The notes beneath the pieces are model-generated. The model made no database searches and was not told the DNA's origin. It saw nothing but the letters and a program-made list of their open reading frames with translations. Of a stretch of DNA of 64,000 nucleotides, positions 59,870 through 64,000 are shown piece by piece. The stretch lies in assembly GCF_002854065.1 (NCBI RefSeq), contig NZ_CP024147.1. One strand, given 5' to 3'. Each line of letters opens with the position of its first letter. The first letter of the stretch is position 1. A program made the position numbers and the translations under genes. Source of the stretch: Escherichia coli. GTDB taxonomy: Bacteria > Pseudomonadota > Gammaproteobacteria > Enterobacterales > Enterobacteriaceae.

Positions 59870-60160
59870 TTATTTATTCGCTGATTTTTCTGCTCGTTGC
59901 CTGCGAAGCTCTTTCGGATCGGCAATGAGAGGGCGATAAATCTCCACCCGATCACCATCATGCACACTATCGCTTAGTTTTGCCGGACGGCTGTAAATGC
60001 CGACTTTGTTTTTAGTTAAATCGATATCGGTCCGCAATTCCAGCAAGCCACTGGCGCGAATAGCTTCTTCAACCGTCGCGCCCTCCTGCAGCGTCACGCG
60101 CTGCAGGTACTGCTTCTCAGGTAGCGCATAAGCCACCTCAACGGCAATTTTACCTGGCAC
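59870..60160 (-). CDS. ratB: UPF0125 small protein RatB (YfjF)
   Basis: ORF 59870..60244 trimmed to in-frame GTG at 60158-60160 ([20 protein letters not shown]...), 96 aa; overlaps ratA 3' end by 11 nt. Start uncertain. Confidence 0.75.
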
Positions 60161-61454: not shown

Positions 61455-61817
61455 GGGGCTGATTCTGGATTCGACGGGATTTGCGAAACCCAAGGTGCAT
61501 GCCGAGGGGCGGTTGGCCTCGTAAAAAGCCGCAAAAAATAGTCGCAAACGACGAAAACTACGCTTTAGCAGCTTAATAACCTGCTTAGAGCCCTCTCTCC
61601 CTAGCCTCCGCTCTTAGGACGGGGATCAAGAGAGGTCAAACCCAAAAGAGATCGCGTGGAAGCCCTGCCTGGGGTTGAAGCGTTAAAACTTAATCAGGCT
61701 AGTTTGTTAGTGGCGTGTCCGTCCGCAGCTGGCAAGCGAATGTAAAGACTGACTAAGCATGTAGTACCGAGGATGTAGGAATTTCGGACGCGGGTTCAAC
61801 TCCCGCCAGCTCCACCA
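61455..61817 (+). ncRNA. ssrA: tmRNA (SsrA), 363 nt
   Basis: Starts GGGGCTGATTCTGGATTCGACGGG, contains tag reading frame GCAAACGACGAAAACTACGCTTTAGCAGCTTAA (ANDENYALAA*), ends with tRNA-like ...GGTTCAACTCCCGCCAGCTCCACCA. Confidence 0.97.
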
Positions 61818-61862: not shown

Positions 61863-61897
61863 GAGCCCGCACGGCGCAAGCCCTGCGGGCTTTTTTG
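61863..61897 (+). terminator. Rho-independent terminator after ssrA
   Basis: GC-rich hairpin (GCCCGCACGGCGCAAGCCCTGCGGGC) followed by TTTTTTGTG. Confidence 0.65.
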
Positions 61898-62020: not shown

Positions 62021-63262
62021 ATGGCAAGAAAAACCAAGCCGTTAACCGATACGGAAATCAAAGCCGCCAAACCTAAAGATGCCGATTACCAGCTGTATGA
62101 TGGTGACGGGCTTACTCTGCTAATCAAGTCCAGCGGTAGTAAGCTCTGGCAGTTCCGTTACTATCGACCTCTGACCAAGCAGCGAACCAAGCAGAGCTTC
62201 GGAGCCTATCCAGCCGTCTCCCTTTCTGATGCGCGTAAACTCAGAGCTGAATCTCGAGCTTTGTTGGCGAAAGACATTGATCCTCAGGAACATCAGAAAG
62301 AACAGGTGAGAAATTCTCAAGAGGCCAAAACCAACACTTTCCGGTTAGTTGCCGAGCGTTGGTGGAATGTGAAGAAAGCCAGCGTAACAGAGGACTATGC
62401 CGACGATATCTGGCGCTCGCTTGAGAGGGATGTTCTCCCGGCAATCGGTGATATCAGTGTCACTGAGATTAAGGCTCATACTTTGGTTAAAGCAGTTCAT
62501 CCGGTTCAGGCCAGAGGTGCATTAGAGACAGTCCGCCGCCTTTGTCAGCGTATTAACGAAGTCATGATTTATGCGCAGAACACAGGCCTGATTGATGCGG
62601 TTCCCAGCGTAAACATCGGGAAAGCATTCGAGAAACCGCAAAAGAAAAACATGCCAAGCATCCACCCAGGTCAACTTCCACAGCTAATGCAGACTATGCG
62701 TACGGCAAGTATCAGCCTGTCCACACGATGCCTGTTCATGTGGCAGCTTCTCACCATCACCCGCCCTGCCGAAGCTGCTGAGGCTCGATGGGATGAGATC
62801 GATTTCGATGCTAGCGAATGGAAAATTCCAGCTGCTCGAATGAAGATGAATCGGGAGCATACGGTTCCATTATCTGATGGAGCTCTCGCTATTCTGGAAA
62901 TAATGAAGTCTCTCAGCGGTGGTCGAGAATTTATCTTTCCCAGTCGCATTAAGCCTACCCAGCCGATGAACAGCCAGACAGTAAATGCAGCCCTTAAGCG
63001 TGCTGGTTTAGGAGGCGTACTCGTTTCACACGGCTTACGTTCTATTGCCAGTACGGCACTCAATGAGGAAGGATTTCCGCCTGATGTTATTGAGGCTGCA
63101 CTTGCTCATGTAGATAAGAATGAGGTACGTCGCGCTTACAATCGAAGTGACTATCTTGAGCAACGACGACCGATGATGCAGTGGTGGGCTGATTTTGTTA
63201 AAGCAGCAGATAGCGGCAGTATCGTGAATAGTGGGGTTAGGGGAATACGTCTTGTAGGATGA
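62021..63262 (+). CDS. intA: P4-type tyrosine integrase (prophage integrase at ssrA)
   Basis: ORF 61985..63262 (TTG start) trimmed to the ATG at 62021 (MARKTKPLTDTEIKAAKPKDADYQLYDGDGLTLLIKSSGSKLWQFRYY...), 413 aa; C-terminal catalytic region with HGLRSIAST...LAH...Y. Position directly downstream of ssrA is typical of CP4-57-like islands. Confidence 0.9.
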   Translation: MARKTKPLTDTEIKAAKPKDADYQLYDGDGLTLLIKSSGSKLWQFRYYRPLTKQRTKQSFGAYPAVSLSDARKLRAESRALLAKDIDPQEHQKEQVRNSQEAKTNTFRLVAERWWNVKKASVTEDYADDIWRSLERDVLPAIGDISVTEIKAHTLVKAVHPVQARGALETVRRLCQRINEVMIYAQNTGLIDAVPSVNIGKAFEKPQKKNMPSIHPGQLPQLMQTMRTASISLSTRCLFMWQLLTITRPAEAAEARWDEIDFDASEWKIPAARMKMNREHTVPLSDGALAILEIMKSLSGGREFIFPSRIKPTQPMNSQTVNAALKRAGLGGVLVSHGLRSIASTALNEEGFPPDVIEAALAHVDKNEVRRAYNRSDYLEQRRPMMQWWADFVKAADSGSIVNSGVRGIRLVG

Positions 63263-63536
63263 ATCCTTTATCAGCACCCATTATGGGTGCTGATAACTCA
63301 CCTATAGGTAATACGGAATTTTACCCTTTGGTTTTCTTTTTTCTAGTAACCGTATTATCGAAAGCCAATTTGATACTCTCAATATTTCTTGACCAGTTTT
63401 TTATAATGGTATCTGCCAATGCATCAGGGCTCATTGTTGATATCCGATATTTTTTACTTTGATTATTAATTTCAAAATTTGGGTGATGCTGCCAACTTAC
63501 TGATTTAGTGTATGATGGTGTTTTTGAGGTGCTCCA

Positions 63537-63812
63537 GTGGCTTCTGTTTCTATCAGCTGTCCCTCCTGTTCAGCTACTGACGGGGTGGTGCGTAACGGCA
63601 AAAGCACTGCCGGACATCAGCGCTATCTCTGCTCTCACTGCCGTAAAACATGGCAACTGCAGTTCACTTACACCGCTTCTCAACCCGGTACGCACCAGAA
63701 AATCATTGATATGGCCATGAATGGCGTTGGATGCCGGGCAACCGCCCGCATTATGGGCGTTGGCCTCAACACGATTTTCCGCCATTTAAAAAACTCAGGC
63801 CGCAGTCGGTAA
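63537..63812 (+). CDS. insA: IS1 transposition regulator InsA
   Basis: 91-aa [46 protein letters not shown]... (zinc-finger + HTH); A6C slippery run TTAAAAAACTC near its 3' end. Confidence 0.93.
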
Positions 63813-64000
63813 CCTCGCGCATACAGCCGGGCAGTGACGTCATCGTCTGCGCGGAAATGGACGAACAGTGGGGATACGTCGGGGCTAAATCGCGCCAGCG
63901 CTGGCTGTTTTACGCGTATGACAGGCTCCGGAAGACGGTTGTTGCGCACGTATTCGGTGAACGCACTATGGCGACGCTGGGGCGTCTTATGAGCCTGCTG
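63731..64000 (+). CDS. insB: IS1 transposase InsB (partial, 5' part; -1 frame relative to insA)
   Basis: From ATG at 63731: [90 protein letters not shown]... open to window end. Confidence 0.8.

Follow-up and report, generated by a model that had tools for sequence, protein, structure and literature searches.

The IS1 copy at the end of the DNA analysed here (a stretch of 64,000 nucleotides from the Escherichia coli contig NZ_CP024147.1, called the window below) is probably the joint of an IS1-associated deletion which removed about 26 kb from a cryptic prophage of the CP4-57 family at ssrA. The truncation of the yfjH homologue of this prophage is observed directly, while we infer the loss of the remaining island. 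The process is an ordinary and well-understood kind of E. coli genome decay, involving a known element, a known process and a known decaying locus.

The identification of the element as IS1 is far beyond chance. Positions 63482-63504 on the plus strand match the 23-bp left inverted repeat (IRL) of IS1, GGTGATGCTGCCAACTTACTGAT, at 23 of 23 positions, and this is the single IS1 end that a pattern search found in the whole window. The terminal inverted repeat of about 23 bp starting with GGTGATGCTGCC, a trait of the IS1 family, is thus present on the left side, and the right one (IRR) lies beyond the window. Positions 63482-64000 (plus strand, 519 nt) agree without a single mismatch with nt 1-519 of the complete 768-bp IS1 of strain CUWW06, and the element runs past the window end. 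In RefSeq the CUWW06 copy is described as 'IS1-like element IS1B family transposase, programmed frameshift', and this copy, identical over the shared nucleotides, carries the Pfam domains Zn_ribbon_InsA, HTH_Tnp_IS1 and DDE_Tnp_IS1. The window contains the complete insA frame (63537-63812, plus strand), whose 91-aa zinc-finger/HTH product forms the N-terminal part of the InsAB' transposase. InsA matches the N-terminal part of the NCBIfam model transpos_IS1 (90 bits, positions 1-81) as well as the IS1/IS1595 zinc-binding domain IS1_IS1595_Zn (41 bits against a cut-off of 28). As in other members of the family, insA is followed by the start of insB' in the -1 frame, and an A6C slippery site is present. 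In IS1 this motif, AAAAAAC at 63788-63794 (plus strand), is where a programmed -1 frameshift fuses InsA with InsB', in agreement with the RefSeq note on the identical copy. Compared with IS1 in general (IS1B-type as labelled by RefSeq), the element itself shows no differences over the 519 visible nt and its site alone is new; the copy looks intact, with its IRL facing ssrA.

The edge of the element was set by alignment to genomes in which the site is empty. These read TTTCAAAATTTG followed by ACTCTTCGAC, whereas the window reads TTTCAAAATTTG followed by GGTGATGC, which places the break exactly between 63481 and 63482. The original prediction had put an IS1 inverted repeat at 63482, about 220 bp downstream of an intA gene ending at 63262. 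Both statements were borne out, as the distance between the intA stop codon (63260-63262) and IS1 amounts to 219 bp.

The island is attached at the 3' end of ssrA. The tmRNA gene itself (61455-61817, plus strand; ARAGORN and Rfam RF00023, 295.8 bits) is intact and encodes the tag ANDENYALAA, and a consensus scan found a terminator-like hairpin with a T-run behind it at 61878-61892 (plus strand). Integration into the ssrA 3' end with an IntA-type tyrosine integrase immediately downstream is a trait of the CP4-57 family, and such a gene is found at 62021-63262 (plus strand) as an open reading frame of full length (413 aa) for a P4-type integrase. BLASTP showed 389 of 413 residues (94%) to be identical to K-12 IntA, and the NCBIfam model NF007246 was matched with 904 bits against a cut-off of 434. 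The identical protein is on record with the Pfam domains Arm-DNA-bind_3, Phage_int_M and Phage_integrase. Behind intA, a perfect 13-bp inverted repeat with a loop of 3 nt (TTATCAGCACCCA tta TGGGTGCTGATAA, 63268-63296) can be read from the sequence. The repeat separates the convergent intA and yfjH-like genes and is likely to serve as a bidirectional terminator shared by both; the consensus terminator scan did not flag it because it has no T-run.

The target of IS1 was a coding sequence and not a spacer. Translation of the window and of the corresponding gene of strain MS 115-1 showed that 63321-63481 (minus strand) is the 3' remnant of a yfjH homologue, of which the last 53 of 292 codons and the stop codon (161 nt) are kept up to the break at 63481/63482. 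The intact gene of 292 codons lies on the minus strand, convergent with intA, in MS 115-1 (L001) and in several other contigs with an identical integrase, and its protein is identical in L001, L003, L005 and L007. It shows 59% amino-acid identity to K-12 YfjH, and searches of Pfam and NCBIfam matched no family. The target region is AT-rich, with 32% GC over 63300-63499. The original prediction that the IS1 signals a truncation of the island was therefore confirmed at the level of this gene.

The prediction had also stated that intA of K-12 is followed by other prophage genes. This is correct, the order there being intA, yfjH (minus strand), alpA, yfjI, yfjJ ... ypjF, ypjA, pinH, ypjBC, ileY, ygaQ and glaH. 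We assign the element of the window to the CP4-57-family cryptic prophages because contigs that encode the identical integrase and whose island is intact share the K-12 backbone, alpA-yfjI-yfjJ...yfjP-ypjF-ypjA. Further likenesses to K-12 CP4-57 are the ssrA site, the IntA similarity mentioned above and the convergent yfjH-type gene. The differences concern the interval between yfjJ and yfjP, in which K-12 holds abpB, abpA, yfjM and rnlAB, whereas the intact relatives carry genes for a 512-aa protein, an 856-aa ResIII/YagJ helicase and a 708-aa N6/N4 methyltransferase (L003:14998-21242; L022/L024:7878-14232). For the 512-aa protein there was neither a family assignment nor an NCBIfam match. 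This interval looks like a cargo slot of the defence type in which the contents have been swapped. The window retains 161 nt of the yfjH homologue before IS1 interrupts the island, and the last 53 codons of this gene are all that can be seen behind intA of a backbone whose rest is present in the relatives with an identical integrase.

The left junction is rare. Megablast with the flank plus IS1 found it in 0 of 5,426 complete RefSeq E. coli genomes, and even the 219-bp stretch between intA and IS1 is present in just 18 of these 5,426. The exact 32-nt junction pattern occurred neither in the species-representative genomes nor in the JGI metagenomes, and an exact-protein look-up with the integrase returned 10 places, none of which carries the IS1 junction of the window. 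Looking up the 67-aa plus-strand frame at 63259-63462 returned one match with an intact island and one contig that stops before the site. An exact-protein look-up with the 37-aa open reading frame of the remnant returned 1 match, on contig k141_15708 of the gut-type metagenome ERZ27255804 (ENA). This contig comes from an independent assembly, and all of its 1859 nt, 140 of them belonging to IS1, are the same as in the window. The RecN allele of the window is too widespread (461 blocks in an exact look-up) to single out its lineage. Genomes of the same lineage with IS1 at this exact position, a target duplication and an intact island would have spoken against the predicted rearrangement; 0 of the 5,426 complete genomes show this combination. 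Being absent from all of these genomes and found on one metagenome contig, the junction could be used as a clone marker.

As the window ends at IS1 nt 519, its right junction was inferred from other samples. In the same metagenome, ERZ27255804, contig k141_36780 begins with 138 nt of the IS1 right end, which continues directly into GAAAAAGGTTACTGG, that is ygaQ nt 790, and then into glaH (junction R2). The 467-aa product of the truncated ygaQ gene, which CUWW06 also encodes, occurs on just 5 contigs of the index, k141_36780 among them, and the 37-aa product of the left side on 1. Their co-occurrence in ERZ27255804 is for this reason unlikely to be chance, and two rare junctions in one sample are most simply the two ends of one IS1. 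The left flank of IS1 in these paired contigs is CAAAATTTG and the right one (L019) GAAAAAGGT, which shows no target-site duplication. The R2 junction is also found in an isolate assembly, GCA_035821435.1, while the link between left and right rests on metagenome ERZ27255804. A contig break at 61763 suggests that more than one E. coli strain may be present in ERZ27255804, which weakens this link.

A single IS between flanks that are normally not adjacent, and without a duplication, is the mark of a deletion joint, and this was seen both in CUWW06 and in the paired ERZ27255804 contigs. IS copies that lack a duplication have been attributed to an adjacent deletion or to recombination between two IS copies (PMC11708052). 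The present case resembles such deletions in that one IS is kept between sequences that normally lie about 26 kb apart and no duplication is found; nested junctions are seen in the sister genome CUWW06, and for the window the deletion is deduced. With regard to the original prediction of an island deletion, the IS1-ygaQ' contig of ERZ27255804, the scar of CUWW06 and the absence of the products of a simple insertion all speak for it, but the deletion is not visible in the window itself.

According to the proposed course of events, the other end of IS1 would be joined to ygaQ nt 790, followed by glaH, without a target-site duplication, and the right junction would be expected to read ...AAGTTGGAGTCATTACC followed by GAAAAAGGTTACTGGTTTCACGC (ygaQ nt 790). 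The DNA lost on the left would include the 5' part of the yfjH homologue (240 codons) as well as alpA, yfjI and yfjJ. The cargo module with the 512-aa protein, the ResIII/YagJ helicase and the N6/N4 methyltransferase would also be gone, as would, on the right, the block from yfjP to ypjF, attR, ypjA, pinH/ypjBC and the tRNA-Ile gene ileY, together with the first 789 nt of ygaQ (its 5' third). The size of about 26 kb was estimated by combining L024 and L016, and on K-12 coordinates the figure is about 29 kb. Such a deletion could have arisen when an IS1 that had inserted in the interval gave rise to an end-anchored 'adjacent' deletion by intramolecular transposition, or else by recombination between two directly oriented IS1 copies. 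Either route would keep one IS1 and destroy the duplication. No intermediate that would favour one route or one order of events, such as an IS1 flanked by a duplication at the site of the window or at ygaQ nt 790, turned up in the complete genomes.

The most obvious alternative is a simple transposition into the yfjH homologue which left a duplication of 8-9 bp and an island that continues intact, from alpA onward, past the window end. The window, showing the left junction alone, would look the same, the AT-rich target suits a de novo IS1 insertion, and precisely such an event has taken place in the same gene in L031 (GCA_900449015.1), in which IS1 is flanked by the duplication GATTTTAAC and the island is intact. 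A simple insertion predicts that the right end of IS1, CATTACC, is followed directly by CAAAATTTG and then by ACTCTTCGAC / ACTCTTCGACAAATTTCC, i.e. by the 9-bp duplication, the rest of the yfjH homologue and alpA. With a duplication of 9 bp the products would be 243 aa (from M1) or 196 aa (from M48) long, and neither is present in an index of 153 billion genes, an absence that another duplication length or other choices in gene calling could also account for. Such truncated N-terminal products are not on record even though small open reading frames had been called in ERZ27255804, and that sample contains the IS1-ygaQ' contig instead. Moreover, the junction is found in no complete genome of the 5,426, and the nearest genome carries the deletion form. 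We consider a simple insertion unlikely for these reasons.

The IS1 could also mark an inversion or translocation via a distant IS1 copy, with unrelated DNA beyond it. The lineage is rich in IS1, since CUWW06 and 100416 have at least 40 IS1-matching places each against a median of 10 per genome, and other IS1 copies of CUWW06 lack a duplication as well, e.g. the one between ychF and a truncated autotransporter gene. There is however no positive evidence for a rearrangement of this kind, and both the right junction of ERZ27255804 and the arrangement in CUWW06 point to a collinear ygaQ-glaH flank, which makes it quite improbable. A mis-joined or collapsed IS1 repeat at the contig end is conceivable in principle, as IS1 is a multicopy element that often breaks or mis-joins assemblies and the window ends inside it. 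However, an independent metagenome assembly shows the junction in identical form and reaches 140 nt into IS1, and the boundary is exact to the base at a canonical IRL, so that an assembly artefact is very improbable indeed. The IS1-associated deletion hence remains the probable explanation.

The closest complete genomes are those of strains CUWW06 and 100416; over 21.4 kb of core DNA the reported identity to the window is 100.0% for each (next best 99.4%). Direct comparison with CUWW06 revealed one SNP at window position 60160. This C/T difference lies near the 3' end of ratA and is the sole mismatch in the 2.2 kb from bamE to ssrA. An origin from Shigella, considered on account of the IS1, would fit less well with this near-identity to two E. 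coli genomes and with a window that has a single IS1 end and no other reported IS. From 61773 rightwards CUWW06 matches the window without mismatch, and a P2-like prophage lies to the left; intA and the following 110 bp show 0 mismatches over 1352 nt. The order in CUWW06 is intA, 110 bp, IS1, ygaQ without its N-terminus, and glaH. The 9-bp flanks of this IS1, GCCAATTTG and CACAATCCA, do not match and hence give no target duplication; intA-IS1-ygaQ' of CUWW06 is a deletion joint.

The left junction of CUWW06 lies at +111 and its right junction at ygaQ nt 841 (R1), compared with +220 and nt 790 (R2) in the type of the window. Both CUWW06 junctions are thus nested with respect to the window type, the left one displaced by 109 bp to the left and the right one by 51 bp to the right. 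We infer that CUWW06 carries the same scar trimmed further, as would be expected if a lineage rich in IS1 keeps losing DNA next to the ends of the element. Since only loss is possible at the scar, the window type is a plausible precursor and CUWW06 a derivative in which these 109 bp and 51 bp have gone. Two AATTTG repeats, at 63367-63372 and 63476-63481, may bound the left step, so that the left junction of CUWW06 is derivable by a 109-bp deletion between them and the transposase is not strictly needed; for the right step no microhomology was found. That both types are successive stages of one scar, produced by stepwise erosion from IS1 after the large deletion, is a possibility which we put forward tentatively. 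If true, it would mean that resident IS1 copies continuously erode their neighbours and that the interval between the ssrA island and ygaQ is a recurrent hot spot across E. coli.

In both strains a P2-like prophage of about 33 kb occupies the ssrA 3' end (CUWW06 L014:2366-34996; 100416 L015:36219 onward), and the window is without it. The prophage of CUWW06 is inserted between ssrA and intA and includes a gene for a TIR-domain protein (WP_023277642.1) that may be a defence cargo. Strain 100416, besides its similar prophage, has an intact ygaQ and no intA island. It also carries a private IS1 in yfiL (DUF2799; L015:20957-21724) with a clean 9-bp duplication, GAAGATGCG, at a site that is uninterrupted in the window, showing that IS1 has transposed recently in a close relative.

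A further IS1 of CUWW06 (L002:6044-6811, in the ychF to dhaR region) has no duplication (flanks GCAAAAATG and GGATTGAGC) and abuts the truncated autotransporter gene, which points to a second deletion associated with IS1 in this strain. A 42-bp match of the flank to IS1 near ychF was considered as a sign of translocation and was rejected, as the alignment showed it to be a chance similarity of AT-rich sequence.

Other strains show IS events in the same interval. IS1 lies at +523 after the intA stop in L010 and at about +640 in L031, the copy with the intact island described above; it is in or adjoining yfjI, in the opposite orientation, in L008 and behind the 512-aa gene in L005, L006 and L007. 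In MS 115-1 an IS1 variant (L001:25609-26376) without a duplication cuts the 512-aa gene beside ileY. Simple IS1 insertions with 9-bp duplications are known from strains sharing the RecN protein sequence of the window (GAAGATGCG in 100416, GATTTTAAC in L031), and IS1 in or beside ygaQ was found in more than 40 complete genomes. Elements of other families act here as well, as the island of ABWA45 is eroded by IS110, IS5 and IS5708 (IS110- and IS5-family elements) between yfjJ' and glaH (L038:30449-34777).

Two further scars resemble that of CUWW06. DX6 has the order integrase-IS1A-ygaQ' and E47 the order truncated integrase-IS1A-glaH, in both cases with no duplication. All three strains share an integrase by ssrA or a prophage, IS1 in the same orientation, ygaQ' or glaH behind it and the lack of a duplication, whereas the junction coordinates differ in every strain. 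The scars of DX6 and E47 are probably independent events, because their copies are of the IS1A type and their integrase allele is more divergent (about 94-95% nucleotide identity). Taken together, these cases suggest that the interval from ssrA to glaH is generally prone to decay driven by IS elements.

The integrase gene of the window is probably an orphan now. If the deletion is real, intA would have neither the excision activator AlpA nor attR at its disposal, the latter being the partial copy of the ssrA 3' end at the far side of the island through which excision takes place, and the remnant would be unable to excise. In K-12, the excision of CP4-57 induced by AlpA deletes T357 of ssrA and thereby inactivates the tmRNA (PMC10107115). 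A remnant that cannot excise would no longer inactivate ssrA in this way, so that the CP4-57-type ssrA switch would be disabled in a strain with the scar. In that case ileY, one tRNA-Ile(CAU) gene, and the helicase/methyltransferase cargo would be gone as well. The case illustrates how CP4-57-like islands decay and, beyond strain typing, matters little.

A minor observation concerns L009 and L010, which come from unrelated assemblies and both end at locus coordinate 11888 inside the yfjH-like gene; in L010 the IS1 extends from 11765, and L009 has no IS1 end.
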